NCBI GenBank assembly: GCA_951406725.2
Contig: OX597842.1
Location: 27,900,001 to 27,964,000, forward strand
Direction of reading: 5' to 3'
Origin: Octopus vulgaris
Taxonomy: Eukaryota
DNA length: 64,000 nt
The position numbers were made by a program, and so were the translations under genes. Of this stretch, positions 14,846 to 40,354 are shown piece by piece (within the stretch, counting starts at the first letter, position 1; each line of letters begins with the position of its first letter). The notes beneath the pieces were generated by a model. The model saw only the letters and a list, made by a program, of their open reading frames with translations. It ran no database searches and was not told the DNA's origin.

Positions 14846-15051
14846 TCAATTGAATTCTGATGATAAACATTCGAGTGCATCGTGACATCCAGTTCTTTCA
14901 AGAGCTTCTTTTAATATTTGAAGTGTACGTTTCTCTGGATCATTACCTTGCTGCCATCTGAGCAGCATCTGGAAGCCTTGTTCCTCAACGTTAAGAGGAT
15001 TGTTCTCCTTGATGTTGTCCAGCTCATATTGTCGAATTCCTAATTCCCGTC
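14846..15051 (-). CDS. Death domain terminal exon (RELGIRQYELDNIKENNP..EQGFQMLLRW..TLQILKEALERTG..stop)
   Basis: Acceptor cttttgcag|; death-domain signature LG....LD.I...NP....EQ...ML..W....T...L..AL; TGA stop. Confidence 0.93.
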
Positions 15052-15419
15052 CTGCAAAAGAAATAAGAAATAATTGCAACAGCATTAACGATAATATAAA
15101 ACCTGTGTACTGTAGGCTGTATTAATTAGGACAAAGAAATTATGTGAATAGAAGAATGAGAAATACTTAAGAAACAGGGAAATTAGAAGACATTGTTATC
15201 TATTTCTAAAGATGTTGACAAAAATATCAAACAATTTGAAATAAAGGCTGGAGAAGGAGAAGAATATTTTAAAGAATTGAAAATTACACATGAGAAAATG
15301 TCTGGTGAACAACTGGCGGGAGAAGTGTTTGTGTGGGTAGCAGTGTATGAGAGCCTAAAGAATTGACAAAGACCACCAACAGATAATTTCATCCATCCGT
15401 CCATTTTCTCTGCCCTCTA

Positions 15420-15790
15420 TTCATAAGAGGTTTGTAGGGGAAGAGTCTTCAGGCACCTCCTTCATATGATCCTATCAGAGGCAACCTTCATTAGAATTTC
15501 TGAAAGGATTTCCAAGCATGGCCAATTGAAACTATGGATATCATCCAACCATTTCATTCTTGCTCTACCCCTAGGTCTCCTGTCGGTTGGCTCAGCTTGA
15601 AGAATCCCTCTTGTAGTTCTTTCCTGTGATATTTTAATCACATGCCAGGATTACTGGAGCTGTGAATTCTCAATGCAGAGAAGCAGTCGCTTGACCTGGA
15701 GAGACCCCAAATCTCCAGCCTGCACACCTTGTTGAGTAACGTTACTCCAGAGACTCTTTGGAGGAATACAATCTCAGTCATTTGATAACA
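15420..15790 (-). mobile_element. Old RTE-like LINE fragment
   Basis: ILQAEPTDRRPRGRARMKWLD-like C-terminal motif. Confidence 0.55.
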
Positions 15791-16129
15791 TCCTGTGATC
15801 AATGCCTGAAATAGTCATTTGCGATGTCTTTCCACCTATGATTAATAAATATTTAAAAATTATCAACATTCAGAAATATCTCAAAAGTGGGGATTGTGTA
15901 CCTGAATGATTTCAACCACTCCAAAGTAAAAATATAATACTGTTAGGTAAATATCACATATTATAGAGGGCACTGGCTTAAGGCTTTTGGATTCATGACT
16001 TATAACAAGAACTTCTTTCATTGGATCAAGGCCACAATTTCAAAGAATCTAATACAGGAGAGGTCCTAGAGTAAACAAAGCAATGAGAAGAGTTTTACCA
16101 ACATCTACACCATACACCTACAACACTCA

Positions 16130-17772
16130 GGTCCTGATAGAATCACTGCATTCACAAACAAGCAAGTTTACAGGGAGGGCAGGTTAAGGTTAGGGCTGAG
16201 GAAGGACTTTGTATGTGGCAAATATACAGGAATAGTTCATAGGAACAAGTATGAAAGACATAGTTGATAGTTTCTGTTACCTAAAGGACAGAATTAGAAG
16301 TAGAGGAAAGTATTCTGAAAGCACAGTAGTTAGAAGGAAAACGAGATGAAAAATGTACAGGGAGTTGTTATGTCTACTGGCAACTAAGGGATTTTGTCTC
16401 CATATGAGGGAGAGATTGCACTTTGCAAATACATCTCATGCAATGTTACATAGAATGTGAAAGATGCAATGGAAACTGCGAGGAAATGAGGTGAGCAGAC
16501 ATCACTAGAAGTGTAATGTTAATGTGTTGAAAACCTGGAGCCAAATAACTGGATCTCAGAAGAATCTGTGATAGTGTACAAGAAAAAAGATAATGGTATA
16601 GATATAGAAGGGACATGGCAGATGAAATCTGGGTAAAGAAGTGCCTGGAATTCAAGTGGAAAGAAACAAGCGATCAAACTGAACAAAGGACCACAACAAC
16701 TCTGGGAGAAGTCGTCTGACCATTACAAACTTAGAAAAATGGATGTAAGGTGATGATGATAATGGACCTGGTGTTAGTGGATTCATTTTATCCTAGTATA
16801 TGACTGGTATATTTTGTATGACACCCAGAGGTATAGCAAGCTGGCAATGTCGTAGATGATGTCCTTTCTTAAATTAGATAATTCATTTCTGAGTGTGAAC
16901 TGCCATGCTACACGCCAGGGAAACATAGGCCATGACAGCTGAGGACATGCGTAGGCTTGACAGAAATGAAGGTAGTATGATCCGCTGGATGTGGAATGTC
17001 TGTGTGCATACACGACACAGTGTAAACACCCTGAGAGGAAAGTTGGACATGAGAAGCATCAAATGTGGTGTGCAAGAGAGACGACTACGCTGATATGGTC
17101 ACGTGTTACGTATGGATGAGGACAACTGTGTGAGGAAGTGCCACTCCCTAACTGTAGAACAAAGCTGTGGAAGAGGTAGACCCAGGAAGACATGGAATGA
17201 GATGGTGAAGCATGGCCTTTGAACATTGGGCCTCACAGAGGCAATGGCAGGAGACCGAGACCTTTGGAAATATGCTGTGATTGAGAAGACCCAGCAACTA
17301 AAGTGAGATCGCAGCCATGGCCGATGCCAGTGTTGCATGTCCGGCCCATTTAAGAGTATCCTTAATGCATCGGGTGACATGATATGCTTGAGAAGACCTG
17401 TTGAGTCAAGTAAAACCAAAATTGCAGCTGTGGCCAGTGCCCCATGACTAGCCCCCGTTCTGGTGGCACATAAAAGGCATCATCCGAATGTAGTCGATGC
17501 CAGTGTCATCTGACTGACTCCTTGTGTTGGTGGCACGTAAAAAGGCGATCCGAACATGACTGATGCTAGGTCCACCTGACTGGCTCCTGTACTGGTGACA
17601 CATAAAAAGCAGCCACTACACTCTCGGAGTGGCTGGCATTAGGAAGGGCATCCAGCTGTAGAAACTCTGCCAGATCAGATTGGAGCCTGGTGCAGCCACT
17701 GGCTCTCCAGACCTCAGTCAAACAGTCCAACCCATGCCAGCATGGAAAACAGACGTCAAATGATGATGATGA
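16130..17772 (+). mobile_element. Two decayed RTE LINE fragments; the second carries the 3' UTR and tail
   Basis: Similar to the reverse complement of 8619-9700; ends ...catggaaaacagacgtcaaatgatgatgat. Confidence 0.8.
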
Positions 17773-18762
17773 TGGTTTCTATCAGCTGACTCAGGGGATA
17801 TTGTCATGATCCCTTGAGTCAGGGATCAAAGGTTCAAATCTAATCCCCAGCACCGCTCAATGTACCTGGTAAAGACATTTCTCTATGCTTCACTCTATCT
17901 AGATGTATATAGGTACCATAGGGAGGTGGAAGACATTGCTGTAAATAATAGGAGCATTGTATAAATGATATTTTAGGTTGTGTTAAACTGTCAGAGAATG
18001 GAAAATGGGATATTGTGATGTTCATGCCTTTCCACGTGACATTTGTAATGTAAAGGAGAGTGAAATGATTTCAATTGAGAAACAAGATCAAGTTGAGTTT
18101 GAATTTTCTGTTGAGATTCTTTTTTTCTAATATAAATGAGTGTTTCATTAACTTACAATGCTGAGTTCAATCCAGCCATGAACACAATCAACAATGGGGC
18201 CTGTCTTCTATAGAGACAGGAAATATATGTTGACCTGGGACTAAAGAATTACAATAAATATAGAAAAACAGACTGGCCAGGGGAGAGATGACAACATGTC
18301 CCACACAATGCACACTCTCATTTTAAAAAGGTTACATTTGATAATGTGGTCCTCTTCACCCAAGAGAAAGAGCGATGGCACATCTGGAACCCTTTCCCCT
18401 TAATTCTGCCAGATTAAGGCAGATATCTGCCGAAATAAACATCAACAACAACACTCTACTAGTAAACTTACTAAAAGTGTAAACAAGCAAAAACATTGTC
18501 ATTAATTCACCTGTTTACTCTTAAACAACAATATTTTTGAGTCCCCTTTTACAAACGATAGTATTAACTCTACTGGACCTTCTAATTTATACATTTTACA
18601 ACCGTGCTGACGTCTGTAGATATTTTATGAAATTTCAGTGATAGCTTTACTTTATAGCTAAACTTTCAATTGGAAATTAGGAATGGAACCGGTTCTCAGT
18701 CATTCAAACAAACAAGTTTAGCTGAAAGCAAAATTTATAGAAATTGGGTATTTTATACTCAC

Positions 18763-18834
18763 CAAGTGGCTGCCATTTACCTGCCAACCTTTGGGACACC
18801 CTATTAAGAAGCTTCTCCGCTCGCGCTACAGAAT
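18763..18834 (-). CDS. Death domain N-terminal exon (SVARAEKLLNRVSQRLAGKWQPL)
   Basis: Acceptor tatttcag|, donor g|gtgagt; phase 1-1; splices to give ..V..RL..KW..LGRELG, the typical start of a death domain. Confidence 0.9.
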
Positions 18835-20335
18835 CTGAAATAAATATTCCCAAATTTTACACTTCATAGCACAATTTCCCGATCTCTGTTAATGGTTTAT
18901 ATTTTATTATTGTAAGACATTCCTATCATCAATGGACAACTTCTGACCACTATAGGTTTGGTTGACACTTTTATACTTCCTACAGTGGTCCTATATAATG
19001 GCTCAATATTTAGGTCCATAACAAAACAGACTGACCTTCCTAAGCTTTCTATTAAGACATCCTACTTAATCTAACAATGTTGCAATCATCTTATTTAATG
19101 ATCACATGTTAACACCTTTTATCTTTCTTCTCTCTTGTATCCATGCTAAACCTATGACATGGCATTGTCCCCTCACCACTAGACTTCACTTAATCAACAT
19201 TCTCCCCATCTTTTGCTTAATTCTGATGTCAACCAAGCTGGTCATCAACGACCTTGACACAAACTCATGTCACACCTGTTATCTTTGTCAAACGTTGCTG
19301 CTTTTAATCTTTAATTTTAAACTATGCAACTCACAGTTCACCAGAATTTCATCTGATTCAGGAAATATTTAAGGACTCCTTAATGAAATGCTTTTCTTTC
19401 CTGATGAGCAATGATTAGTTCTACACAGGTGAAACAGAAAGTGATAGCAAGTATCCTAAAACACTGTATACTTGCACAAAACATCTTTAACAACATGCAA
19501 ATGTTCATACACAGATTATCGCAAAGGAAAAACATCTGAAATGGTACAAAAGAAGTGATATTTAAGAATATATTATCAAGATGGTGATATAGATCAAACT
19601 TCAAGCATCAAATCTTGTTTTTGCCCAGAAGTTTTGACTTGGCAAATGCTTATTGCCCATCCTCGGTTTCCGCAATGACATCAATGCCTCTACTCTTATC
19701 GGAGAATGAGATCGTCTACCACAGTCCAAAACGTCTTACAAGTTACTCTTTAACCTTTCGCATCGTTTCTCCTGCTATTTTGAACTTCACTTGCTTCTGT
19801 TGACCTTTCACAAATGTCAGAATGCATTCATTATTTGTTTCAAACAGCATTCTTGAGCAATTAATTAGTCCATCCAATCTATCTTGGACTGATTGCATAT
19901 ACTTTGGATCTCTTGTTAGCATTTTTATGTCATCCAAGAATGTCTTCTTAGGTGATTTCGCCTGAGTAATTTCTTCTCATAAATCTGCCGATCCCCATAA
20001 CAAGCACAAACCAAGTGACTGATAGTGTGCAACCTACAGCTATTCCAGTTTCAATGTTGGACACATGAAAATCTTTCTAGTGCTTGTGCCACATTAAAAT
20101 GTACTCAGGACTCTTTATGAAGTGGTTGGTGTTGGGGAGGGCATCCCACCATAGAAAAGGTGGAATGTTTAAGGGAGATGTGTTTCTCAAGCAGTCACGG
20201 GGGACAGTAACTCTGAATAAGAACTGACTTGGACAGTGATCACCCATCCATTACATGGAAGCAAGGAGAGCAGAGTGTAAATGATGAGGACAATAACATC
20301 GATTGTTTTGTATCTTGCAACCAGTGTCCATCTTA

Positions 20336-20371
<36 letters not shown>

Positions 20372-21150
20372 AATTGTCTCAGCAGAAGACCAAAGCTTCT
20401 TACTTGGACAAAGACATCATTTAATGGATGTAATAATAGATTTACTAACAGTGAAAAAAAAGACAGGGTGATCACACTTGTAAGCTTTCAACTTAACCAT
20501 CTTGTTCAACAAGAACATCAACAACAATAATCAGTAAACTTATTGAAAATGTACAACAAACAAACACTGTCATTAACTCACCTGTTTACCATTAAACAAC
20601 AAAATGTTTTTCTTCCTTCATTCAAAAGACAATATTAACTCTATTGTTTTTTTTTTCTAATTTAACCATTTTAGCAACAGGGCCAACACTGCTGGACATT
20701 TTATTAAATTTCTGTAATATCAATATTTTAAATACAATTCATGTTGTTACACGACTGGAAAGTACAGAGGCTGCTACATGTAGATGCATAGAGAGAGAGA
20801 GCGAGATGAAGGAAGAAACAGGGAAGGAGAGAGAGAGAGACAACAATGAGATGAAAGAAAAGTGAATGTATCTCATTATGGGGAGAGAACAGCTTCAGGG
20901 TGTATATTCTATCTTTTGTATTTTGGCCTCATTGTGAAAGACATTTTTCCTGTGTCTCATGTTTCCATATTTCTATAAAACCCCTTAATTGGATATTCTT
21001 GCATTTGCAGGTAACGAATAGAATTACTTTTATCGCTAACCATTCAAAAGAAATGTAACAATGGAACCTGTTCTCAGTCATTCACACAAATAATATATCT
21101 CAGGTGAAGGTAAAATTTATAGAAATCAATTACAGTTATTTTATACTCAC

Positions 21151-21201
21151 CAACAGATTCTGCAACCGTCTTGACCGCTTTTTCTTCAGTCTTTGGACAT
21201 T
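21151..21201 (-). CDS. Short linker exon (CPKTEEKAVKTVAESV)
   Basis: Acceptor tatttcag|, donor g|gtgagt; 51 nt, phase 1-1, open frame; symmetric, so it may be skippable. Confidence 0.7.
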
Positions 21202-22459
21202 CTGAAATAAGCATTTCAAAGTTTTATACTTCATAGTAAAATTTCTTTGTCTCTTTTAATAATCTATATTCCATTTTTGTAAGGCATTCATATCATCAAT
21301 AGTCAATTGGTGACCACTATGCTTTCGGTCAACACTTTGTAAGCTGTTACTATATAATAGTTCAATATTTAGAACCGCAGCAAAATGGGCAACCTTTCTA
21401 AATCTCATCTTTCTATTAAGACATCCTATATACTAATCTAACAATTCTGAAATTCTCTCACTTAGTTATCACTTCATAACACTCTTTTTCTCTTAGTTTT
21501 GTCTTTCTTTTGTTATGTCTGTGCTGGTCATATGACATGCCATTGTCCTCTCATCTCGAACCTTCACTAACCAATATTCTTCTCAGCTTCTACTAAATTC
21601 CAGTCTCAACCAAACAGGTCTTCAAAGATCTGGCCACAAAGGCATGACACATTGCTTCAGGAAGGATAAACATACCCCAGCTCTCATTTTTATATGTTAC
21701 TGTTGGTAATCTTTAATTTTAACTGCCCACATCACACTTCACCAGAATACCACCTGATTCAGGAAAGATCTGAAGATATTTCAATGTCATTCATCCTCCT
21801 TAATAAGCAGCTTTTTCTTTTTCCAGGTGAGCAATGATTAGTTCTACACAGGTGGAGCAGAAAGTGATAACAGGTATCCTGAAACATTACATTTGTATAA
21901 AACCTCCTTAACTTAAAACTGTTCATCTACACATTATTGCAAAGGAGTTATACCTGAAATGGAACACTAGAATTCATTCTCAAGAATATATAAGACTCGC
22001 TAAGAGTCAGATCCTTAAACTCTCAGTCGAGATTTTGTCATTGAAATTCTTACATTACAAAGCTGACTGTGATGTTGTAGGAAGTACTGTTGTCCTTAAT
22101 TATCAGTTTCCCAAGATACTTATAAATCATTAATCTCATATAAAAGCTGACAACTGAATATAAAAAGTTGATGTTTACTGATGGGACCTTGGAAATATAT
22201 TGATATTTCATTTATATTTCAGTAAAACGTATTAGTCTTATGTTGCAGACAGTACTCTTTTGATGTGGGACAGGTTTCCTACTTGGATAAAGACAATATT
22301 CAGTGGGTGTAGTCATGGATATACTATCAAAGAGAAAAGACACCTGGGACATCTTTTATCATACGTCTGTCAGATTATGACAGATCTGGGTCGATACAAC
22401 ATTATTCCATTCCATAATGTCATGTGACAAACAGACAGATCATCAAATCATATTCTTAC

Positions 22460-22581
22460 CAACTCTCCTTTTGCTTTCTATACATGTTTTATACTTGGGG
22501 AATCTTTCAGGTTGAGTTTTGCTACTATCTTCACAGGGTTGTAACTCCATGCTGGCTTCACTCTCTTCACAAGGCATACAT
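22460..22581 (-). CDS. Degenerate RING-finger exon (CMPCEESEASMELQPCEDSSKTQPERFPKYKTCIESKRRV)
   Basis: Acceptor ttttttccacag|, donor g|gtaaga; 122 nt, phase 2-1, exactly bridging the flanking exons; CxxC-x10-PC pattern of Mind-bomb-type RINGs. Confidence 0.8.
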
Positions 22582-22946
22582 CTGTGGAAAAAACATAAAA
22601 CACATCCCACCTATAACATTCATTTCTAACAAATATTACATGTTTGTTTTATGTTTACAGTACAGAATATTATGAAACACCAGACTGACCAGAGTGAGGT
22701 GCATGGCTAAGTTGTTAGGCATTTGGACTCATAGAGTAAAATTGCGGTTTCAATTCCTGGACAAGGCGATGTGTAAAGTTCTTTAGCAAAACACTTCAGT
22801 CCAGGTTTGCCCTGCATACAAACCTGCCCCTTGTTATAGGTGAGTCCATGTTCATTGATCTACATCTTATCAACTTCAGATGTGTTCCTCCAAAACAATT
22901 TTATTTGCCTCAGTTGATTGGATCAAATCCCAAACGAGTTAGTTAG

Positions 22947-23270
22947 TTAGTTAATTTGGCTCAAAAGCAAATTGCAAGGCCATGTAGAGGGACATGGAGT
23001 TAAGTACAGGGTGGTGTTCAAGTAAAGAGTTCAGGCCACTTGAGGTCAAGGGAGGCTTTGAACAAAGCGGTCATCGGCATCTTCACCATCTCATCTGGCA
23101 GCTTGTTCCACGGATCCGCAACCCGGACGGAGAAAGCTCCTCTCCCTCGATTGAGATGAAATCGTCGCAGGTAGAGCTTTTCGGAATGACCCCGCAGCCG
23201 ACGCTCTGGATTCACCTTCTACTGAGCTATGTGCATACTGTTTAGCTTCTTATAAGGACAGGTGTGATAA
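22947..23270 (-). mobile_element. CR1 LINE 3' end
   Basis: LRGHSEKL..RRFHLN..AFSVRVADPWNKLP; (AACT)n tail. Confidence 0.85.
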
Positions 23271-23419
23271 ATTGAGCTCTTCGTCATTCACCACCTGATA
23301 CACACCTGAAGTTACATATTGTAGGTCCCTTAAATCATGACTCAATACCAGATGAAAAAGGGATGCAAACTGGTCTGAGGATATCCTCGTCCATGAACCA
23401 TGACAGATTTAAATCGAGA

Positions 23420-25790
23420 TACAAATTATTGTTTAAAAATACCCACAGTTTATGCAATAAAGTTCACTATTTTTGATTCCTAAGTTAAAAGTACTGATTC
23501 CAATCTCATTTGTTAAACCTGGACACATTCTTTACTGTGCAATGGTGTTTTTAGCATGGCTGGCTACATTTTCTTTCACAAAGACCTTTTTCATTACCTT
23601 GGAGGTGGTGCGATGGTCTATGCTTGCTCAAGCTTTTCAGAAATTGCTTGTGAAGATTTAAACCAGTCACAAGAGGAAGTTTTCTGCGACATAAAAGCAC
23701 ATCAACATTTACCATCCTCGAAACTTTTTAGAGCTGCATCTATGAAAATGGTCACCTATGTTCTCATACTTGTGATTTCAATTACCCAATATTGATTAGG
23801 AAATCTTTCACTGGCCACAAAATGCAACCGATTTCCTTCATTTAATGTTAGATTCAAACTAATCCCAAGTAGTCCTCTCTCCCTTAAAAGGTAACAACAC
23901 TTTCGATCTGCTATTTACCACTGCTCCTGAAATTATCAGCCTCAATAGTGATGAACCCTTAGGTGACTCTGATCATACTCCAGTCTTGCAAAAATATTTC
24001 TAATGGATAGAAAGAAAAGCCACCATAACCTCCAAACTGCTTCGTTTTCCTGGAACTCCGACTGTACTGAGGTATAGTTCCCTGACTGGCTTCGACTTAA
24101 CAATTCTGGAGATGTCAAGACTAACCTTCAGCACATCCATCCTTAATTCATGAATAAGTGTCGGTGCCATAGAAACGTTTTAGAAACCTGAATATGTGAG
24201 AGACTGCCAGGAAATATCGATGAGATGCTGGACGTGATAAAAGAACAGGGGATAAAAGAAGAAGGTGCAACATGGTACCCTGCCATATTAAAGGAGTGAC
24301 AAATGTACCGTTTTCACTGCTACTGAGATCAAATTCCATAAAACCTGTTGAATTCTGCAATATCGCAATGCTAATTGAAGCATATGTGCAATTATGCTTC
24401 CTCTTGTCTTGGTGGTGTTATTCATCTGCTTCTCAAAGGGTGCACCCTTTTTCTACTGCACCAGCTTTTTGTCCTCTTCTAATTCACACTTAGCCCAGTT
24501 TAATGGAAAGTTGCCATTATCCTCCCCCGTTCAAAAAGGGAGTGACCAGACATCCCCTGTTGATTACCATCCAGTCAGTCTCACAGAATTAATGGATCTA
24601 CAGGAAGACATTTTGGAACATCTGGAACCCTCATAAGCTTATTCAAACTCCAACCATTTCGATTTATCCCTAACTGTTGCTGCATTGAATTTCTTCACAG
24701 ATGGTGGTTCATGGGTGGATATTATCTCTATCAACTTCACCAAAGTCTTTAATTCCATGCCACAGAGATCAATTACGGCACAACTGTCTGGAATGGGTGC
24801 GAGGACTAAATTATATAACTGCTTAAAATACTTACATTCTCAGTTGAAAAGACAGAGTCACAACACTAAGCTAACATTCTGCACCCAACACAGAAGACCT
24901 ACAAGGAACTACAATTGGTTTTCTCTTGCTCCTTCTATGTATCAGCTAAATACATGCCAACTATCTGCTATAGATCCTTTCTTCAATCTGACCTGGATAC
25001 AATGCAGCAATGCACTGCTGATTGCAAACTCAAGCTGGCCATAGAATGGTGCACCACTATACACTTTGGAATGGAAATTCCAAAATTTACCAACTCTCTC
25101 CAGAACAACAAACTTCAAAAGTCTGCAGGTGAACTTGACCGTGACATTAATGTCAACAATGATGTGTAATGCATGAACCACATTTCTAAAAATCATCAGA
25201 AATATCAAAGTATTGCTCAGTAAAACCTCTGCCCGTCAATTTGTCAAGTTATCAGTTTAAAATTATGCCTGGCTATCATACGTCTACACTTACAGTTTAC
25301 ATTTCCAATCTGGAATCCCCATCCTGTCCAGAATATCTATTCAGAGAAGAACAACAAGGCAAATACTCTCTCTTATTTACCATATCTTGAATATATTGCT
25401 TCTCTGGGTATTGACATCTTATTAGATGCTATATACCTTTGCTTCAATCTGATCTCCAAACCAGGCAAATACTCTCTGTTAGTCACCATATACTGAATGT
25501 ATTGTTTCTCTGGGTATCAGCACACTAAAGTTTTGAAGTCTAGCAGCTAATCTGGTATAATCCCTTAGGTTTATACATAATCTTGCCAACAACAACTTTG
25601 GCAACATTTTTGAATTCAAAATCTCAGCCAGCAGCAGACATTCTTATAAAATTAAAATAAAAAACAGTGCAGCACCCATGACTTTACGAAATACTTTATC
25701 TCACTCAGAATTATTTAAGCACACAACAAACCACCTGAGTCAGCTGTTAGCTGTCAGGATACGGCATCCTCCAAAATATTCTTTTCTTAC
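23420..25790 (+). mobile_element. Highly decayed CR1 LINE (APE endonuclease and RT)
   Basis: Remnants NTHSLCNK, QKGSDQTSPVDYHPVSLT and VDIISINFTKVFNSMP; 3' region resembles 12340-12450. Confidence 0.7.
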
Positions 25791-26191
25791 CGAGGATATA
25801 TAGCCAGTACAAGGTGTTGATGTGGCTGCGTGTATGTTATTTACAAGAGTTCATAAAGAGATGAAGAATAAATTCAAGACCTATATATTTACTACGGAAA
25901 AATATATTTTATTTACTGGTCGATGACGATACACAGAATTAATATGTAGCATCTAGTTGAATGAAATAATCTATACAAGAAAGTTCAGAGATAGGAAATA
26001 TAGAAAAAATAGCCAAGTGGTGGCTTTCAGCCATGTGGCGTAGAGAAACAGACGGACATAGCAATGACGTGAATGGCTCTAAGTCTAATCGACTAAGAAG
26101 CAAAGAGCAGGGTTAGCAAGCTTACATACACACATACATGCTTACATACATAACTACGTACGTATATATCCATATATATCCATATATATAG

Positions 26192-26250
<59 letters not shown>

Positions 26251-27144
26251 CATATACCCGAAAACAACCACCCACACATATATGTATATATATATATACA
26301 TACACATACATACTGTTAACTAAAATAGTATTAAGAATCATTAAAATTAAGATAATATTAATTGTTAATACAACGAAAGGGGTTGGAAGGGCAATTCGTA
26401 ATATACAAAAAAGAGGGGCCTAAAAGGGTAGAAAGAGGTAAGGGTTAATAAAAGGCAAAGGTTGGGAAATATTGAGATAAAATTTATAAGAAGGGTATAA
26501 ACTCAAAACCCAGATTTACCATAACCAGTGTAAAGAAGATGTAGGTTATTTGCATAAGATACATAATTAAAAATTACACCACATATTCCGTAAACAATCA
26601 GAAGACTAGGAAACCGTCCAGATATCAACACTTGTAAATTTTATCTGAATATTTTCCAACAGTAATCAGACACAAGAACAGGAGTAAAGAGGGAGGACAA
26701 TTTATTAAATGAACCCCTGGATATTACTGGTACAGATTTTGAGCCCAGGAGTTGAACTTGGAACACAAACGGATCAAAGTAAGGGGATGATTCTGCATTT
26801 AGCCCAGGGCCAGAGGAAAGAGGAAAATTTCAAGAGAAGGTGGGGGGTGAGGTGTTTTACATGGAATGAAAGGAAGAAGGGAGAGGATTTGAACCTGTAA
26901 CGTTGAGGTAACGAAGGATGAGATGAAGTAAAGAATCCAGTCAGGTAACAACAACAACAACAATAATTATGATGATTAATTAATGAAGTTAGATTACAGT
27001 GTCATTAGAGTGTGAGAGAGAGAGAGAGAGAGAGAGAGGTGAAGCATGACGACCCACGGTGGGATTATGACATGAATGACTCGAAACAAGAAAACAAAGA
27101 TTAAAGAAACAGATTTGGATAATCCAAATCCATTGGGGACTTAC

Positions 27145-27605
27145 TTTTGAACTGCCAGATGGAGAGGGGTGTCACCCTCGAGGTTCACCTTATTGGCATC
27201 CATGCCTTTCTGTTTCAGGAGAAAATCAACAACTTCCTTGCTTCCTTGAGCAGAGGCAAGTTGTAGAGGGGTGTCACCTTGCTTGGTCACAGCATTAACA
27301 TCCGTGCCATTCTGTTGCAGGAGAAGTTCAACAACGTCCTTGCTTCCATGGCGACAGGCAAAATGGAGACCTGTCCAACCATCTTCATTCACAGCATTAA
27401 CATCCGTGTCTTTATGTTGCAGGAGAAGTTCAACAACGTCCTTGCTTCCATAGCGACAGGCAAGATGGAGACCTGTCCAATCTTTGTTCTCCACAGCTTT
27501 AACATCCGTGTCTTTATGTTTCAGGAGAAGTTCAACAACGTCCTTGCTTCCATATTGACAGGCAAAATGGAGACCTGTCCAACCGTCTCTATTTCTCTGA
27601 TTAAC
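27145..27605 (-). CDS. Ankyrin-repeat coding exon with 4.5 tandem 34-aa repeats
   Basis: Acceptor ttttttag|GTT AAT; donor aa|gtaagt; 461 nt, phase 0-2; repeats such as VNAVNEDGWTGLHFACRHGSKDVVELLLQ. Confidence 0.95.
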
Positions 27606-28052
27606 CTAAAAAAGATAAACAATAAAGACATTAAAGATGGTGTTTATTGGGGGAAGAAGGAAAAAAATGAAAAATGTCAGAGAAACAGAATCAGATTAAT
27701 TTAAACAGGTGGAATGAAGGTGGGGGGAAAATAAATGAGATTTATAATGTATCTATACACACACACATATGTGTATGCATATATATATATATATACACTC
27801 TCGCACATACATATATACATAAATACCTATATATACATACGTGTTTTATATCTTCACGGATCATTTGTTTATGCATCTTTGTGTATATATGCGTTTATGT
27901 GTGTGTATATTTGTGTATGTATGTACAGGTCTGTGTGAGCTGAAGAAAAGTTTTTAATTAAAAACATATAAATATAAACTGTTTCATATACATATAACAC
28001 AAACCAACATACATATCTTTATACACACACATATATATATATATTCGCTGAC

Positions 28053-28209
28053 CTGTAAATTGTTATTTTCTTTGCTATTTAACAGGACTTTGACTACATC
28101 TTCATAGTTCTTCCTCACAGCCCAATGTAGAGGTGTTTCGCCCCATGAGTCCTGCTTATTAACATTTGCTCCACTGGAGACTAAGAAGGCCACTGCATCA
28201 GTTTTGTGC
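28053..28209 (-). CDS. Ankyrin-repeat coding exon (HKTDAVAFLVSSGANVNKQDSWGETPLHWAV...NNLQ)
   Basis: Acceptor cctttcag|, donor cag|gtcagc; phase 2-0 matches both neighbours; GANVN..D..GETPLH motif. Confidence 0.93.
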
Positions 28210-28316: not shown

Positions 28317-28358
<42 letters not shown>

Positions 28359-28375
28359 CAAATATGTATTATGTA

Positions 28376-29100
28376 AAGGCAAACCTACACAAATGTGCCC
28401 CAGACGAATGTTTCCTCGTAACTTCTAGAAAAATGGATGTTTTTCAATGAATTTTCTTTCACAAATATCCTTCAGATGGCAAATATTCCAATTATATCGG
28501 AATTTGTTGTGAGAAAAACCTTTTCGGTGGGTGGAGAGAGAAATTTAGGAAAGTTCACCCGAGTCGGCTTTCTTTCCAAAAAAATAGATATTTTCAAATG
28601 AAATTTTCAATAAAACCGTTTCGGATGGTGAAGATTTCGATTATATCGGAATTTAATATGAAGAAAATTATAAAAATTGGTGGATTCGCACAGATATACA
28701 CTGACACAAAACAGAAAATAAAAAGATGAACTTTGGGAAAATAACCGTGATGTGTGTCAGTATGTATGTGTGCGAAACCATCAAATTTTTAAAGTTTTTT
28801 CATGTTAAATTCCGATATAATCCTAATCTACACCATTTGAAAGGGATTTGTAGAAATTTTCACAGAAACAAAATATCCGCTTTTCTGAAAGTTATAGAAA
28901 AACAAAACGGATTTGGGTGAATTTTGAGAAAGTCAACTCCTCAACGTTTGAAAATTTGTTTTTACAACAATTTCCGATATAATTGGAATCTTCATCATCT
29001 GAAGCATTTTTGTCAAAGAAATTTCATTAAATATCAATTTGTCTCAAAGTTATAAGGAAACAAATTCGTCGTGGGGCCCAGTTGTGTAGGTATGCCTATA
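28376..29100. mobile_element. MITE/foldback, almost fully palindromic
   Basis: Starts aggcaaacctacac and ends gtgtaggtatgcct; arms pair inward to about 28710/28750; internal sub-repeat attatatcggaattt. Confidence 0.8.
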
Positions 29101-29174
29101 CATATGGACGCATATATATATATTTATATATATAAGCCTGTCTCGCGTTTTCGGCATTTCCGGTTTCATTAAGT

Positions 29175-30344: not shown

Positions 30345-33300
30345 GCACGACACACACACACTCTCTCTCTCAAACACATGCATATACATTTGCACAAACA
30401 CATAGTAATTAATATATAAGCGTACACACACATACAAACGACACACACACACTCTCTCTCTCTCTCTCTCTCTCAAACACATGCATATATATTTGCACAA
30501 GCACATAGTACTTAATATATAAGCGTACACACACACACAAACGACACACACACACACACTCTCTCTCTCTCTCTCAAACACATGCATATACATTTGCACA
30601 AGCACATAGTAATTAATATATAAGCGTACACACACATACAAACGACACACACACACACACTCTCTCTCTCTCTCTCAAACACATGCATATACATTTGCAC
30701 AAACACATAGTAATTAATATATAAGCGTACACACACATACAAACGACACACACACACACTCTCTCTCTCTCTCTCTCTCAAACACATGCATATATATTTG
30801 CACAAGCACATAGTACTTAATATATAAGCGTACACACACACACAAACGACACACACACACACTCTCTCTCTCTCTCTCAAACACATGCATATATATTTGC
30901 ACAAGCACATAGTACTTAATATATAAGCGTACACACACACACTCTCTCTCTCTCTCTCTCAAACACATGCATATACATTTGCACAAGCACATAGTAATTA
31001 ATATATAAGCGTACACACACACACACACACTCTCTCTCTCTCTCTCAAACACATGCATATACATTTGCACAAGCACAGAGTAATTAATATATAAGCGTAC
31101 ACACACATACAAACGACACACACACACACTCTCTCTCTCTCTCTCTCAAACACATGCATATACATTTGCACAAGCACATAGTAATTAATATATAAGCGTA
31201 CACACACACACACTCTCTCTCTCTCTCTCAAACACATGCATATACATTTGCACAAGCACATAGTAATTAATATATAAGCGTACACACACACACACACACA
31301 CTCTCTCTCTCAAACACATGCATATACATTTGCACAAGCACTTAGTAATTAATATATAAGCGTACACACACATACAAACGACACACACACACATTCTCTC
31401 TCTCTCTCTCTCAAACACATGCATATACATTTGCACAAGCACATAGTAATTAATATATAAGCGTACACACACATACAAACGACATACACACACACACTCT
31501 CTCTCTCTCAAACACATTCATATACATTTGCACAAGCACATAGTAATTAATATATAAGCGTACACACACACACACTCTCTCTCTCAAACACATGCATATA
31601 CATTTGCACAAGCACATAGTAATTAATATATAAGCGTACACACACACACACACACTCTCTCTCTCTCTCTCAAACACATGCATATACATTTGCACAAGCA
31701 CTTAGTAATTAATATATAAGCGTACACACACACACTCGCTCTCTCTCTCTCTCAAACACATGCATATACATTTGCACAAGCACATAGTAATTAATATATA
31801 AGCGTACACACACATACAAACGACACACACACACACTCTCTCTCTCTCTCTCTCAAACACATGCATATACATTTGCACAAGCACTTAGTAATTAATATAT
31901 AAGCGTACACACACACACACTCTCTCTCTCTCTCTCAAACACATGCATATACATTTGCACAAGCACTTAGTAATTAATATATAAGCGTACACACACATAC
32001 AAACGACACACACACACACTCTCTCTCTCTCTCTCTCTCAAACACATGCATATACATTTGCACAAGCACTTAGTAATTAATATATAAGCGTACACACACA
32101 CACTCTCTCTCTCTCTCTCAAACACATGCATATACATTTGCACAAGCACTTAGTAATTAATATATAAGCGTACACACACACACTCGCTCTCTCTCTCTCT
32201 CAAACACATGCATATACATTTGCACAAGCACATAGTAATTAATATATAAGCGTACACACACATACAAACGACACACACACACACTCTCTCTCTCTCTCTC
32301 TCTCAAACACATGCATATACATTTGCACAAGCACATAGTAATTAATATATAAGCGTACACACACACACACACTCTCTCTCTCTCTCAAACACATGCATAT
32401 ACATTTGCACAAGCACATAGTAATTAATATATAAGCGTACACACACACACACTCTCTCTCTCTCAAACACATGCATATACATTTGCACAAGCACATAGTA
32501 ATTAATATATAAGCGTACACACACACACACACACTCTCTCTCTCTCTCTCAAACACATGCATATACATTTGCACAAGCACTTAGTAATTAATATATAAGC
32601 GTACACACACACACACTCTCTCTCTCTCTCTCAAACACATGCATATACATTTGCACAAGCACATAGTAATTAATATATAAGCGTACACACACACACACAC
32701 TCTCTCTCTCTCTCAAACACATGCATATACATTTGCACAAGCACATAGTAATTAATATATAAGCGTACACACACACACACACTCTCTCTCTCTCTCAAAC
32801 ACATGCATATACATTTGCACAAGCACATAGTAATTAATATATAAGCGTACACACACACACACACTCTCTCTCTCTCTCAAACACATGCATATACATTTGC
32901 ACAAGCACATAGTAATTAATATATAAGCGTACACACACACACACACACTCTCTCTCTCTCTCTCAAACACATGCATATACATTTGCACAAGCACTTAGTA
33001 ATTAATATATAAGCGTACACACACACACACTCTCTCTCTCTCTCTCAAACACATGCATATACATTTGCACAAGCACATAGTAATTAATATATAAGCGTAC
33101 ACACACACACACACACTCTCTCTCTCTCTCTCAAACACATGCATATACATTTGCACAAGCACTTAGTAATTAATATATAAGCGTACACACACACACACAC
33201 TCTCTCTCTCTCTCAAACACATGCATATACATTTGCACAAGCACATAGTAATTAATATATAAGCGTACACACACATACAAACGACACACACACACACACT

Positions 33301-33940
33301 CTCTCTCTCTCTCAAACACATGCATATACATTTGCACAAGCACTTAGTAATTAATATATAAGCGTACACACACACACACACTCTCTCTCTCTCTCTCAAA
33401 CACATGCATATACATTTGCACAAGCACATAGTAATTAATATATAAGCGTACACACACTCTCTCTCTCTCTCTCAAACACATGCATATACATTTGCACAAG
33501 CACTTAGTAATTAATATATAAGCGTACACACACACACACACACTCTCTCTCTCTCTCAAACACATGCATATACATTTGCACAAGCACATAGTAATTAATA
33601 TATAAGCGTACACACACACACACACTCTCTCTCTCTCTCTCTCTCAAACACATGCATATACATTTGCACAAGCACATAGTAATTAATATATAAGCGTACA
33701 CACACATACAAACAACACACACTCTCTCTCTCTCTCTCTCAAACCCATGCATATACATTTGCACAAGCACAGAGTAATTAATATATAAGCGTACACACAC
33801 ATACAAACGACACACACTCACTCTCTTTCTCTCTCTCAAAGACATGCATATACATTTGCACAAGCACATAGTAATTAATATATAAGCATACACACACATA
33901 CAAACGGACATATACATACACACACATACGCACACAAGCA
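30345..33940. repeat. Composite intronic satellite, roughly 40 units of ~80-105 bp
   Basis: Constant core caaacacatgcatatacatttgcacaagcac(a/t)tagtaattaatatataagcgta separated by variable (CA)n(CT)n; copy number estimated from length. Confidence 0.97.
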
Positions 33941-35310: not shown

Positions 35311-35387
<77 letters not shown>

Positions 35388-36566: not shown

Positions 36567-36721
36567 TTCTCCACTGCATAATGCAATGCTGTCCACTTCT
36601 TGTCTTCGTCACTGATGTTGAGATCAGCTCTAGATTCTGTCAATAAGGTTATTAACTCTTTATTGCCTTGTTCACAGGCAACCATGAGAACCGTAACACC
36701 TTTTGAATTTCTGTTGTTGAC
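36567..36721 (-). CDS. Ankyrin-repeat coding exon (VNNRNSKGVTVLMVACEQG...WTALHYAVE)
   Basis: Acceptor tctcttcag|, donor aa|gtaagg; phase 0-2; ankyrin motifs GxTxLMxA..G and WTALHYA. Confidence 0.93.
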
Positions 36722-36759: not shown

Positions 36760-36798
<39 letters not shown>

Positions 36799-36816
36799 AA
36801 AGAGAGAGAGAAAAGG

Positions 36817-36865
<49 letters not shown>

Positions 36866-36939
36866 TAAAGAAGATGCAAGAGTGAAAAAAAGGAATACGA
36901 AAGAGAAATAAAGATAAACACACACACACACAAATGCAT

Positions 36940-36985
<46 letters not shown>

Positions 36986-39900
36986 CATGTTGCAGGGGTT
37001 TTCTCAGCCAGATTTTGCCCTTATTTAGAGTTACACTCCTCCTAGACGAGTCAGGAGACCTTGTAGACACAGGCGTGGCTGTGTGGTAAGGAGTTTGCTT
37101 TCCAACCACATGGTTCTTGGTTCAATCTCACTGTGTGGCACTTGAGTGTCTTCTTTTATAGCCCTGGGATGAGACCAAAGCTTTGTGAGTGAGCCTGACA
37201 GAAAATGAAAGAGACCCATCATACATATGTATGTGTGTGTGTATGTATATATATATATATATATATATATACACGCACACACACACACATATATATATAT
37301 AAGTGTGCACACACACACAAGTATGTGTGTATCTAATTATATATTTGTAAATATGTATTTGTGTTTATATGTGTGTGTGTGTGTGATATATATATACATG
37401 TATCCTCATTCTATATGGATCAAGATTGGAGCCTGGTGCAGCCATCTGGTTCACCAATTCTTAATCACATCGTCTATACTGATATGTATGTATGTATAGG
37501 TTACATCTCCAATCTGGTATGCTCATTTTGTCCAAAATACCGAACTACTGGAAGCTGTCCACAGATGTACAACCACACAAATAGCCTCTCTCAATCACTT
37601 ATTATTCCTTAAAAGTATTGCTTTTCCATGCATCAACACACAAAAGTTTTTATTTCTAGCAACTCACTTGATAGAATCCTACAAGATTATCCCTCATCTT
37701 CCAATAACAACTTTGACCACTTCTGCAATTTAATATCTTTATCACTCTGAGACATGCTTATAAAGTAAAAAAAACACCCATCCCAGTTTCCATGATATCA
37801 GAAACAATATTTTTATGCTCAGAATTGTCAAGGCATGGAATAAACTATCTACATTGGTTGTTAGCTGTATCCTTCAAAAACACCACACTTTCTGTAATTC
37901 AGAAACACTACATCTGAGGTTCCTATGCACCCTTTCCTTTTTGTGGTTCTTTTACTGCTCCCTTTTATGTCTTTATGAGTTTTATTCTGTGTTATACTAT
38001 GACGTGCACTTTAGGCGACCATTGGGGTCTTTCTTGACATGATTTGTGCTTCCTGTCCTTTCATAGAAGTGGACAGAGCAATATCGAGGGAAACCAGTAC
38101 AAATACCGTTTCATGGCAGATGGAAGAGTCTTTCTTATGAAACGTGAAATGTCTGTCTTTAGTTACAACCTCACTTTTGTCTGAGTGAAGGCCAAAAAAA
38201 ATCAGTTGAGACAATCTTCCAGTTTATTACTGGTATCTGTGATATCAATTATGAATTGAAGAGAACACTGACAAGATTTCAAACTTGGTACCTTATAGGA
38301 GACACACGGGTAAATAAGAGAAACCATCTACACTAACCAACCGCAGAGATTAGACCATAAGATGGTGTATAAAGTAATTGGACAGGTGAAGAGCTATAAA
38401 GGGTCAAAACCCTCAGAAATAATTGTGTAGATTCTAAATATGTCAGACAGGGTTTTAGTTTTATATTCTCTGGAAAAGCTCATGAAATTCTACACTGGGT
38501 TATCACTGATGTCTGGCATAGTAGCACTTTCATTTAATGCTATAATGATGAAGGAGATTTAAATGATGGTGAGAGAAGAACAGGATGTTTGAAATGAAGC
38601 ATGGATCTTCAGATGTCATATGTCTGGTGAAACAGCCACATGAGATCTTGGAAAAGAATGAAAGCAAATCTACAAGAAAGGTTTTAGAGAACTGTCCCTT
38701 ATTCTATTGACAGTAGAGCACAGGTAAATCAGGGCGAAAAAAGCTTAGAAAGACTGTTCAGTTCATGCATAAGCTCAAGGAAAAGATTGAAAATCCTTTT
38801 ACGCTAATCACTGAATCTATTACAAAGTAATTATTTGTGATTAGATATCTGCGACAACTTTGGAACGACACCAACCACAGCTAAATATGTGCAACTATGG
38901 AAAAGGAGGAGACACAAATGAAAAGAAACAATGGAGAAAATAAGAAATATTCTGAAAGTAGGGATCAGAATTTTGAGCCTAAATAAGGCAGCAGCAGTGT
39001 CAGGGCTTACATTAGTTTGTAGCCATACAATATGTAAGAAGGTGTGAGTGGTTCATACACAACTGTATTACACCTGTACAAACAACACTATTGACTTCTC
39101 CTTGAGGAAAACACCTACCCTCACTAAACTGGCAGACATTCACCCACCATTGAAATACATGTATGATGGTCATCAAGAAATTAAAGGATGTTTTTTCTGC
39201 ATTTCACCATTTGTCAGCTGTCTTCCCTCCCAAATTAAAAGCCACATTTTCTGGTCTCTTACCTAGAGTATCTCTATAGATTTTACAGAATCATTCCACC
39301 CACCACTCCCTAACCATGATGGTTCTATACCAGTGCTTCTTAAACGTTTCAATTATGGCCCTTTTTTATTTACTAAGAGTTTTTCAATGCCCCTTTTCTT
39401 GCTATGATTCAATGTCTCTGATTTTTAATGTTCTCACGGGTCAGATTAATTTACCTTTGGGTCCTAGTCTTGACATGGGTGACTACTTACCACAGCACCA
39501 CCCCACAATAAGTGAACATTTGATGCATCACCACTTCACCTTAGTTTCTGATCCAAACTCAACTACACATTGAGTTTTATATATTTATATATTTGGCTCC
39601 CTGGTCCTTATAAAATTTTCCACAAACCCTAACCAAGGGTAGCACTACTACTTAGAGAAGCCCTGTTTTATTATTCTTGCTGATAGTGTCCTATCCGCTG
39701 ACTACCAGCCAGTCATTCTAACTTCCAATATTTCAATTATGAAGTAAAAAGTCATAAACAACCATCATCTTTGTCCCTTTGGGTATCTTTCTCTATTCAA
39801 TGAGCCCCAGAACAGTTCCATAAAGCTGGTTCAAGCAGGGGTCTGATTCCTACGTGACTCCCCAGTGTTTTGGTTATGTTTGACAACTTCTGCAAAAGAA

Positions 39901-40270
39901 ATACTGTAGCCCTTGACGTCGGTAAAACCTTTAACTGTGTATGGCAAGAGAATTTCTTGACAAAGTCATCATTTATCTATTGGGTCCATCTGTCCCCCAT
40001 CTCTTGAACTGAATATTTCCTGCCAGAATACTCCATTGCAGTGTGTGAGGATGGGTTTCTCTCTCACTCACATTCCATCAATTCTGCCATGCCTCATTGT
40101 CTGGTTGAATATTTATAAAAAGTGACAATGATGAGGATTAGAGGAAAGAGGTAAAGAAAGAAATGAAATATTATGGACAAATATATCTGGTTATTTAAGA
40201 ACATTTAATATTGTGTATAAAATAATAAACAAACATTCAACATTGAAGAAGCAATATAAAGTAAACTTAC

Positions 40271-40354
40271 TATTTCAGGATTTTTTTTGATAAGTTGTTC
40301 AACATCTTTAAAGTCTCCATTCTGAATCTTGCTTATAATCTTATTTACATCCAT
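40271..40354 (-). CDS. ANK-RING remnant-death domain gene, first coding exon (MDVNKIISKIQNGDFKDVEQLIKKNPEI)
   Basis: Polypyrimidine acceptor ...ttttattcaacag|ac ATG; donor ATA|gtaagt, phase 0; joins in frame to VNNRNSKG to give an ankyrin N-cap pattern (GD..V..LI..NP.VN). Not in ORF track. Confidence 0.8.

Follow-up and report, generated by a model that had tools for sequence, protein, structure and literature searches.

What is the origin, and what might be the function, of an octopus gene that joins ankyrin repeats to a degenerate RING and a death domain? Such a gene lies on the minus strand of a 64,000-nucleotide stretch of Octopus vulgaris DNA, here called the window (contig OX597842.1, positions 27,900,001 to 27,964,000). 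An earlier note had described it as a Mind bomb (MIB)-derived module that lost ligase activity and gained a death-fold output. We give a probability of about one half to the reading that the window gene is a young, damaged copy and that the MIB2-derived family to which it belongs likely comprises variable, predicted ligase-dead intracellular sensors.

Exons and RNA joints of the window gene

Re-splicing reproduced the eight minus-strand exons proposed in the earlier note, with their splice sites and phases and a stop-free protein of 435 amino acids. All seven introns are of the GT..AG type, with phases 0, 2, 0, 2, 1, 1 and 1, and all 14 splice sites are intact. The features are as follows.

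Exon 1 (E1), 40271..40354, minus strand: ATG and N-cap-like first ankyrin repeat, 28 amino acids; copies occur in paralogues
Exon 2 (E2), 36567..36721, minus strand: ankyrin repeats 1-2; homologue of the MIB2 exon that encodes residues 453-502
Exon 3 (E3), 28053..28209, minus strand: ankyrin repeat 3; aligns without gaps to its MIB2 counterpart and shares its length of 157 nt
Exon 4 (E4), 27145..27605, minus strand: 102-nt ankyrin repeats in an internal array, with five motifs ending in a half repeat
Breakpoint zone of a deletion of ~7.4 kb, 26097..26246, no strand: at a (TA)n(GA)n microsatellite
Intronic insertion of 267 bp, 22942..23208, no strand: missing from the three paralogues aligned across it and from the RNA contigs of all four runs
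Exon 5 (E5), 22460..22581, minus strand: remnant of MIB2 RING1, with three of eight zinc ligands left
Exon 6 (E6), 21151..21201, minus strand: 51-nt linker, a diverged duplicate of E7
Exon 7 (E7), 18763..18834, minus strand: death-domain helices 1-2
Exon 8 (E8), 14846..15051, minus strand: death-domain helices 2-6 and stop codon
Candidate poly(A) signal, 14477..14482, minus strand: nearest AATAAA downstream of the stop, as a motif only

A Pfam scan of seven exons (E1-E5, E7 and E8), a check named in the earlier note, placed Ank on E2, E3 and E4 and Death (PF00531) on E8 (E 3.6e-9; 37.1 bits against a cut-off of 22.6), with no match on E5 or E7 and sub-threshold noise only on E1. The roughly eight ankyrin repeats first proposed correspond to eight TPLH-type motifs, of which the eighth is half a repeat, without a second helix and without a cap. 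The deletion of ~7.4 kb took out the MIB2-type C-terminal ankyrin exons, which are kept in six of nine paralogues, and the length of E4 itself is 257, 359 or 461 nt among extracted copies. The earlier note called four of the exons invisible in its ORF track; stop-to-stop frames over E1, E5, E6 and E7 span just 60, 55, 49 and 50 amino acids. The model is not a product of chance, since the order ankyrin-RING-death domain is kept in all nine mapped paralogues, with E6 in eight of them and E7 in eight. The E1 peptide forms the same protein start in O. sinensis and O. vulgaris proteins, and the AG acceptor found 2 nt ahead of the ATG makes an upstream untranslated exon likely. At 38142-38104, 13 codons match the start of the database protein P0003; they were rejected as an exon, since other proteins splice E1 straight to E2. 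E6, first called a linker, can be described more closely: with ~1 kb of flanks it is a 68% copy of E7 and its flanks (21991-21018 versus 19573-18641), it is tandemly repeated in some paralogues, and dropping it leaves the model in frame. The array containing the gene is rich in microsatellites and transposon pieces.

Spliced joints were found at family level only, in contigs from four runs, none of them on record as RNA, over a stretch that stops short of E1-E3: E5-E6 in one of the four runs, E7-E8 in three, and an E6-E8 joint that skips E7. The earlier note had joined 27145 to 22581; this E4-E5 joint is not among the joints listed. At 29 of the 31 diagnostic sites checked, the contigs show paralogue-type bases, so that no RNA evidence can be assigned to the window copy, and the share of its words present in RNA (0.52) cannot show its expression, since 65% of those words also occur in fetched paralogues.

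Descent from MIB2 and size of the family

The family derives from the half of MIB2 that holds the ankyrin domain and the first RING, as shown by introns and by continuous alignment. The paralogue P0012 aligns continuously with residues 501-918 of Octopus MIB2 (E 1e-57), and for the window model the alignment with MIB2 begins where the MIB2 ankyrin domain begins. Intron positions and phases equal those of MIB2 at four exon ends in the window, among them the phase-0 intron of E1 and the phase-2 end of E2 at the same aligned position, and at three more in paralogues; exons of 157 and 210 nt have identical lengths in MIB2 and the family. The MIB1-like locus has an intron inside its E2 equivalent that the family lacks, a comparison that is partial, as the MIB1 C-terminal exons were not found within the 100 kb fetched. 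A tree of the ankyrin C-terminus and RING1 (34 rows) included no MIB1 and therefore cannot tell which of MIB1 and MIB2 was the source; for that we rely on the introns. All 12 family RINGs tested scored 90-124 against MIB2 RING1 and 41-63 against RING2. The MIB origin first suggested is thus supported and narrowed to MIB2, and the ankyrin domain of the window copy is of MIB type by descent, with its C-terminal exons deleted.

The remainder of MIB2 was lost and a death domain was gained through phase-1 exons. The MIB2 N-terminus (residues 1-426, searched with tblastn) and the coiled coil-RING2 module had no match in nine of nine family regions, the window extended by 20 kb at both ends included; in the same search two MIB2-type loci matched both, and the MIB1-like locus matched the N-terminus. 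Accordingly, the N-terminal MZM (MIB/HERC2-ZZ) and REP substrate-binding region is absent from the family regions and present at three MIB loci, and in the window gene E6-E8 stand where the terminal coiled coil and catalytic RING would be. The gain of a death domain, as the earlier note had it, is upheld by the Pfam match on E8 and by an exon set shared with paralogues. A donor gene was not found among nine further death-domain regions, five of which have family ankyrin/RING exons upstream of the death domain, two the family linker and death-domain exons only, and two a death-domain exon alone; Atlas searches returned generic clusters only. The forms seen fit a traceable series, in the order we infer: full MIB2, ankyrin-RING-RING, ankyrin-RING1-death domain, and lastly cap-less and RING-dead copies.

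The window gene does not stand alone: it is one copy of a large family whose ankyrin-RING-death domain architecture is already present in public protein records. At least 55 RING-to-death-domain units occur in this Octopus genome, although some copies may be uncollapsed haplotypes: 55 of 92 RING exons (93 hits minus a duplicate row, the second frame of L052) are followed within 25 kb by a same-strand death-domain exon, versus two with one upstream and two with one on the opposite strand. By this count of paralogues and by its MIB2 exon structure, the gene is not a one-to-one orthologue of a known ankyrin-death domain gene. Six database proteins (P0002, P0003, P0005, P0012, P0015 and P0018), named 'MIB2-like' or 'ankyrin repeat', carry Ank, zf-C3HC4_3 and Death and belong to the same family with the same exon set; the exons of P0002 and P0003 match paralogues in G000. 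Such relatives bear automatic names only, 'MIB2-like' for many at NCBI, and literature searches found no paper describing this Octopus family. The death domain of the window copy is in none of six database hits (best identity 76%), and a further record, P0001, fuses two neighbouring genes into one chimeric model.

State of the RING and predicted loss of ligase activity

E5 of the window copy carries an in-frame 18-nt deletion between TGTG repeats and eight substitutions, all of them amino-acid changing. Five of eight zinc ligands are lost and E5 has no match to PF13920, which bears out the dead RING first described, for the window copy. Eight amino-acid changes and no silent one in 122 nt compare with 12 changes in 1405 intron sites (Fisher p 7e-5). 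This dead RING is confined to two of ten close copies, and P0001 bears a RING identical to that of the second; five of the ten keep all eight ligands. Independent RING damage has occurred at least three times (through two distinct 18-nt deletions and one frameshift), and such damage affects three of four cap-less copies versus one of five capped copies of the same RING type, with L023 counted as damaged for Phe at ligand 7, where a later cysteine pair might substitute. In a further subfamily (L061, L067, L070-L072) the histidine ligand is absent. In the predicted structure of P0001 the dead-RING remnant has a pLDDT of 26-33 and no strands, the intact RING of the same chain reaching only 44-53; in P0003, folded as a single sequence, RING and death domain both fall below 50.

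The window copy is damaged and may be decaying. We consider it somewhat unlikely that it is a pseudogene in the making within a functional family, having lost its ankyrin cap and then its RING, with a frame open only because the duplication is young. Its introns are 96-99% identical to those of paralogues, leaving little time for stops to arise, and several neighbours are broken already, with frameshifts or stops in L052, L084, the death domain at 28.50 Mb and one duplicated E4. Its private bases are missing from the RNA contigs at the sites shown, and the excess of RING damage in cap-less copies points the same way. Eight intact exons with 14 intact splice sites argue against decay, as do the in-frame deletion and the lack of silent change in E5. 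The distance to every fetched paralogue is at least 7% for E1 and at least 13% for E7, against ~1-4% in introns, a pattern that resembles remodelling but that intron homogenisation can mimic.

Excerpts of PMC7815719 report that RING2, not RING1, of human MIB2 is required to ubiquitylate cFLIP, and in the portions of a preprint consulted (bioRxiv 10.1101/2024.03.01.582834) MIB1 ANK-RING1-2 is inactive and mostly monomeric, with cc-RING3 conferring activity and dimers. As the RING retained in the family is RING1, dispensable in human MIB2, the decisive loss of ligase activity likely dates from the family's birth, when RING2 was replaced by the death domain, and not from the decay seen in the window copy. 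In the loss of ligase activity that the earlier note proposed, the decay of RING1 was probably not the decisive event; the swap of the catalytic RING2 is predicted to have been. Dozens of Octopus genes are probably mislabelled as 'E3 ubiquitin-protein ligase MIB2-like' in databases, given that they lack the catalytic RING.

Some family RINGs have a CPxC or CPICR motif missing from MIB2 RING1 and could have regained ligase activity. Intact members would then be active E3 ligases whose variable ankyrin face picks substrates, possibly pathogen proteins, with the death domain serving dimerisation or localisation and only the window copy catalytically dead. We regard this as unlikely. Retention of all eight ligands in half of the close copies and a full-length RING exon that is not accelerated (omega 0.72, not significant) favour it, as does the proline after ligand 7 in many copies; CPICR, found in one subfamily, matches P993, I994 and R996, the E2-contact residues of MIB1 RING3 in the same portions of the preprint. 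Set against these are RING1 descent in 12 of 12 tests, from a RING that, in the excerpts cited, human MIB2 can do without and that is inactive in MIB1, the disappearance of the cc-RING2 module, and the repeated loss of RING1-type RINGs, including the subfamily without the histidine ligand.

Variation among copies and a candidate sensor role

Among 13 young copies, diversity is 0.126 in E8 versus 0.017 in the adjacent intron (7.5-fold), decreases from codon position 2 through 1 to 3, and changes the amino acid at 39 of 67 codons; gene conversion between introns could widen this exon-intron gap without selection. Across 29 E4 repeats, the six most diverse positions (p 2e-4) are those that we take to be randomised in DARPins. 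Variation in E3 peaks at repeat positions 3, 5, 13 and 16, with 37 of 52 columns invariant. Tree-based omega is 2.2 for E8 (p ~0.001), 6.5 for E3, far above 1 for E7, 2.3 for the 3' part of E4 and 1.0 for E1. The four-gamete test fails at 254 of 496 site pairs in E8, so that these values are inflated by recombination; tree-free minimum-count dN/dS is 1.13 for E8 (p 0.39), 2.2 for E3 (p 0.08) and 2.7 for E7 (p 0.055).

We judge it improbable that the copies vary for the sake of recognition outside immunity (for instance of neuronal or developmental identity, or of gametes) or because constraint is relaxed and gene conversion acts on a tandem array rich in repeats. In favour of this, MIB2, the parent, is a ligase of the Notch pathway, E8 has a tree-free dN/dS near 1, and the array is packed with repeats. 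Relaxation alone, however, would not limit change to ankyrin contact positions on a fixed scaffold, as in E3, and the pattern matches that of fungal NLR ankyrin repeats in the parts of PMC4986451 consulted.

By profile, the window copy has the six-helix death fold: the best natural PDB matches of the death-domain profile are Fas (E 1.7e-6) and RIPK1 (6e-6), then ankyrin-3 (1e-3). The last death domain of the P0001 model has six helices (pLDDT ~73-89), and P0018 reaches an Atlas TM of 0.80-0.85 to death domains. The variable surface comprises helix 3, the 3-4 loop, the end of helix 4 and helix 6, with helices assigned by analogy, and its variability matches that of the ankyrin contact sites. 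Hypervariability is uncommon in a death domain; it would suggest either that pathogens exert pressure on death-fold signalling or that assembly is specific to each paralogue. This variability and the repeated RING damage would also suit a death domain that is bait or decoy, not output, varying as an effector target or for self-only assembly, with RING-dead copies as dominant-negative sinks for intact relatives. We think that quite unlikely: 18 of 18 copies have the same hydrophobic core and share several charged death-domain residues, as for a working fold, and pathogen targeting is without direct evidence.

For the sensor reading, which we prefer, we speculate that the concave ankyrin face would bind a foreign or damaged protein, that binding would cluster family proteins, and that clustered death domains would recruit a death-fold adaptor of the FADD, CRADD or RIPK type, triggering caspase or NF-kB signalling; in the window copy, the RING remnant and E6 would act as a mere flexible tether. 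FADD and CRADD occur in molluscs, one cephalopod included, according to excerpts of PMC11463336. A death domain tied to one conserved adaptor should be conserved, yet E8 varies widely. The sensor-adaptor role in immunity or cell death that the earlier note proposed is one that we infer for the family from patterns of variation only.

More tentatively, the back half of Octopus MIB2 may have become the source of dozens of NOD-less immune receptors that act inside cells and form a germline library, through the swap of a catalytic RING for a death domain, with ankyrin input and death-domain output surfaces both in an arms race, and copies like that in the window selected to shed the RING as sensor-to-death-domain links or decoys. 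Cephalopods are poorly studied with respect to diversified intracellular immune receptors. The family would offer a concrete candidate set, in which the window copy matters mainly as one step in the series.

Compared with MIB2 (Octopus P0180 and human), the window gene has a homologous, collinear ankyrin array and RING1 with introns in common; its family differs in lacking MZM/REP and coiled coil-RING2, with a death domain in their place, and in comprising dozens of fast-evolving copies, of which the window copy has its ankyrin cap deleted and RING1 dead. Ankyrin arrays with a C-terminal death domain also occur in ankyrins, DAPK, NF-kB p105/p100 and ANKDD1. The ankyrin part of the window gene is, in contrast, MIB2-derived by the intron test, and the model lacks ZU5, kinase and Rel domains; it is set apart from ANKDD1 without direct alignment.

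The central STAND domain (NACHT or NB-ARC) of NLR-type receptors is missing from the 435-amino-acid model and from the Pfam lists of its relatives. For the repeat sensor under diversifying selection that marks such receptors, the family gives a divided picture: variation concentrates at contact positions, far above introns, and omega exceeds 1 on trees, but the tree-free counts are not significant. A close parallel lies in fungal NLRs such as Podospora Pa_3_8560, whose highly conserved ankyrin repeats are positively selected according to excerpts of PMC4986451. Near-identical ankyrin repeats, variation in repeat number and a variable concave face are common to both in that account, and the fungal repeats are coupled to a death-inducing output, to which the death domain of the window family, as a putative output, would correspond. 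The window family differs from the fungal NLRs described there in lacking NACHT/NB-ARC, in placing the sensor first and the death fold last, in its E3-ligase origin, and in the hypervariability of its output domain.

Gene structure in the window

The window's ankyrin-RING remnant-death-domain gene is a real gene with eight exons, as follows.

Exons of the joined model, with Pfam matches (window positions)
E1: 40354-40271, minus strand
E2: 36721-36567, minus strand, ankyrin
E3: 28209-28053, minus strand, ankyrin
E4: 27605-27145, minus strand, ankyrin
E5: 22581-22460, minus strand, no match
E6: 21201-21151, minus strand
E7: 18834-18763, minus strand, no match
E8: 15051-14846, minus strand, death domain

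Splicing E1-E8 gives 1308 nt encoding, as the earlier note had claimed, a 435-aa protein without internal stops, and all seven introns are GT..AG, with phases 0,2,0,2,1,1,1. In Pfam, E2, E3 and E4 match ankyrin repeats, E8 matches the death domain (DD; 37.1 bits against a cut-off of 22.6), and E5 and E7 match nothing. The roughly eight repeats proposed are borne out by eight TPLH-type motifs, the eighth repeat stopping after its first helix. Because E6 with ~1 kb flanks is a 68% copy of E7 and its flanks, the E6 "linker" is a recycled death-domain exon.

The RING encoded by E5 is dead, as predicted: three of eight zinc ligands are left, with no complete zinc site. In E5, 18 nt flanked by TGTG repeats have been deleted in frame, and eight substitutions, three of them at zinc ligands, all change amino acids. 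A deletion of ~7.4 kb, with a breakpoint at a microsatellite near 26100-26250, has also removed the C-terminal ankyrin exons, which are retained in 6/9 paralogues and missing in 3/9. Among ten close copies of the window-type RING, five are intact, two have the window's dead form, one has a different 18-nt deletion, one a frameshift, and one is intermediate, changed only at ligand 7 and around it. The dead E5 has changed faster than its introns (8/122 versus 12/1405 sites, Fisher p 7e-5), a pattern that fits selection for RING removal but also an older exon amid homogenised introns. That the window copy is decaying, as these losses might suggest, is possible but doubtful.

Intron 2 contains an 800-bp imperfect palindrome (28333-29134, 71%), common to paralogues and probably a non-autonomous DNA transposon, and a 3.5-kb minisatellite with 80-103-bp units (30350-33900). 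A degenerate GTTAGG-like repeat lies just 3' of the gene (14105-14262), and a 94-bp tandem repeat (12 copies, 98%) at 7406-8557. By eye, a long minus-strand open frame at 55179-57512 resembles the endonuclease part of LINE ORF2, with further LINE-like fragments at 9151-9699 and 47902-48408.

Descent from MIB2 and fate of the RING

Sequence comparison indicates that the ANK-RING-DD family descends from Mind bomb 2 (MIB2), and we take the introns as proof. Introns of the MIB2 gene in the same genome match the ends of E1, E2, E3 and E5 in aligned position and phase; E3 is 157 nt in both genes and aligns without gaps, and a C-terminal ankyrin exon retained by paralogues has the same 210-nt length in MIB2. 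At a MIB1-like locus, where the stretch examined did not reveal the C-terminal exons, an intron absent from MIB2 and the family interrupts the E2 equivalent. Full-length MIB2 proteins bearing the MZM and REP domains (P0179-P0181) came up when an ANK-RING-RING relative was the query. Paralogue P0012 aligns without interruption to Octopus MIB2 over residues 501-918 (E 1e-57); for the window model, alignment begins where the MIB2 ankyrin domain begins. The MIB origin proposed earlier is thus narrowed to MIB2. The MIB2 N-terminus and terminal coiled coil-RING2 (cc-RING2) had no match in the window ±20 kb or in eight other family regions; the MIB loci match.

Octopus proteins P0083, P0073 and P0178 (ANK-RING-RING, without MZM/REP or death domain) are candidate intermediates linking MIB2 to the ANK-RING-DD family. 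Adjoining the MIB2 gene on contig C26 (0.73-2.54 Mb; L151-L160, L171-L173) are further MIB2 paralogues with REP domains, and the one examined retains the MIB2 exon structure and both RINGs; this cluster may have been the family's nursery.

All 12 family RINGs tested are of RING1 type, scoring 90-124 against MIB2 RING1 and 41-63 against RING2. PMC7815719 reports that cFLIP ubiquitylation by human MIB2 is abolished by mutation of RING2, not of RING1. For MIB1, bioRxiv 10.1101/2024.03.01.582834 describes ANK-RING1-2 as mostly monomeric and without self-ubiquitylation, activity and dimerisation coming from cc-RING3, the homologue of MIB2 RING2. RING1 is followed by a phase-1 intron, and exons 6-8 have introns of that phase too; the catalytic last exon would have given way in frame to a death-domain cassette, and ligase activity would have gone at the family's origin. 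The suggestion of a MIB-derived module that lost ligase activity and gained a death domain stands for descent and for the C-terminal death domain, while the loss would belong to that origin. In many family RINGs ligand 7 is followed by proline, and one subfamily has CPICR, resembling E2-contact residues of MIB1 RING3, so some copies may have regained activity. Given the RING1 type and the lack of cc-RING2 matches, we nevertheless think it unlikely that the intact copies are active ligases. At 5/30 RING loci read (L061, L067, L070-L072), a subfamily has aspartate for the histidine ligand.

Family size and transcripts

The genome holds at least 119 E8 matches, at least 21 of them on contig C29 (27.5-29.8 Mb), and at least 93 matches to an intact RING exon (92 after removal of one duplicate row), all lower bounds in which some copies may be uncollapsed haplotypes. 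For at least 55 of the 92 RING exons, a same-strand DD exon follows within 25 kb, compared with two that have one upstream and two on the other strand; the window gene does not stand alone but is one of these units. The order ANK-RING-DD holds in 9/9 mapped paralogues, with E6 and E7 each in 8/9. Most paralogue introns match those of the window gene at 90-99% identity, introns 4-7 at 96-99%, so the cluster is young or homogenised. Named protein relatives in three match lists all come from three Octopus species (6/6, 20/20 and 10/10, the last a subset looked up among long matches in a list crowded by unrelated long ankyrin proteins and uninformative on other molluscs). The window copy's death domain is absent from the six matches of the first list (best 76%).

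The death domain closest to the window's (87%) lies at C29:29364692-29371111, where a long ankyrin exon precedes E8 and the interval matches neither RING, E6 nor E7, making it another RING-less or broken form. At C29:29344356-29348317 (L145), an exon-1-like peptide recurs in at least seven tandem copies ~202 bp apart. The public 712-aa model P0001 runs together two adjacent genes, at 28.20 and 28.17 Mb, and leaves out exons; annotation of the cluster is unreliable. On contig C1 (216.93-216.97 and 102.71-102.73 Mb), DD exon copies spaced ~3.5 kb or less all contain stop codons and read as tandem pseudo-exon arrays.

Four runs, each from a different study and presumed to be RNA, supplied contigs that were aligned to window 14300-27700. 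At predicted splice sites, E7-E8 is joined in 3/4 runs, E5-E6 in one, and E6 directly to E8, an in-frame skip of E7, in one; splicing of the family therefore follows the model over the 3' half. This holds at family level and is not specific to the window copy: at 29/31 sites checked (drawn from 40 of 168 rows), contigs bear a base of close paralogues and not that of the window. Of the junctions singled out for checking, E4-E5 (27145 to 22581) is absent among the joints listed (15 of 24), and loose contig ends at the end of E4 resemble mixtures of paralogue exons, intact RING included. Introns in this interval are covered continuously, from transcripts not yet spliced or from DNA among the reads, and summed depth climbs to the gene's 3' end in 4/4 runs.

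Sequence variation and likeness to known systems

Across 13 young copies, the DD exon segregates at 68/201 sites (diversity 0.126) versus 61/857 (0.017) in the adjacent intron, with variation by codon position ordered 2 > 1 > 3. A one-ratio codon model gave omega 2.2 for E8 (likelihood ratio 11, p about 0.001); omega was 6.5 for E3, far above 1 for E7 and 2.3 for E4 in its 3' part; two C-terminal ankyrin exons gave 1.4 (not significant) and 4.4, the full-length RING 0.72 and E1 1.0. Against this, tree-free minimum counts gave dN/dS of 1.13 for E8 (p 0.39), 2.2 for E3 (p 0.08) and 2.7 for E7 (p 0.055), and the four-gamete test failed at 254/496 informative site pairs in E8 and 83/231 in the intron. 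The contrast of exon with intron is robust, as is where the variation falls, but not the magnitude of omega. In 29 exon-4 repeats, diversity peaks at positions 3, 13, 5 and 14, and the six positions randomised in DARPins, as we take them to be numbered here, are more diverse than the remaining 21 among columns 1-27 (p 2e-4). DARPin randomised positions sit on the concave face, according to PMC8229355.

We give a probability of about 0.5 to the family being a variable intracellular sensor. Its ankyrin face would bind foreign or damaged protein, leading to clustering; an adaptor of the FADD, CRADD or RIPK type would then join the clustered death domains, and caspase or NF-kB signalling would follow. 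While the family's evolutionary history is established, this functional chain is inferred throughout. FADD and CRADD are reported in molluscs, a cephalopod among them (PMC11463336). The hypervariable death domain could instead be a bait or self-sorting tag, which seems rather improbable, and a role outside immunity is less probable still; the rival readings, decay of the window copy and active ligases included, overlap in part.

Proteins with Ank, zf-C3HC4_3 and Death domains are already public under names like 'MIB2-like'. The present analysis adds the proof from introns of MIB2 descent, the distinction between RING1 and RING2, the hypervariability of the death domain, a count of the family and a series of decaying copies. 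Literature searches aimed at the family, in a library without most subscription journals, found no published description; an expansion may yet appear in supplementary tables of octopus genome papers, and MIB goes unmentioned in PMC11252417. The window gene is not a Mind bomb ligase, lacking MZM/REP and a catalytic RING, nor an NLR, lacking a STAND domain. Closest in presumed working are fungal NLRs, whose near-identical ankyrin repeats vary in number and are under selection on the concave face, as PMC4986451 describes.
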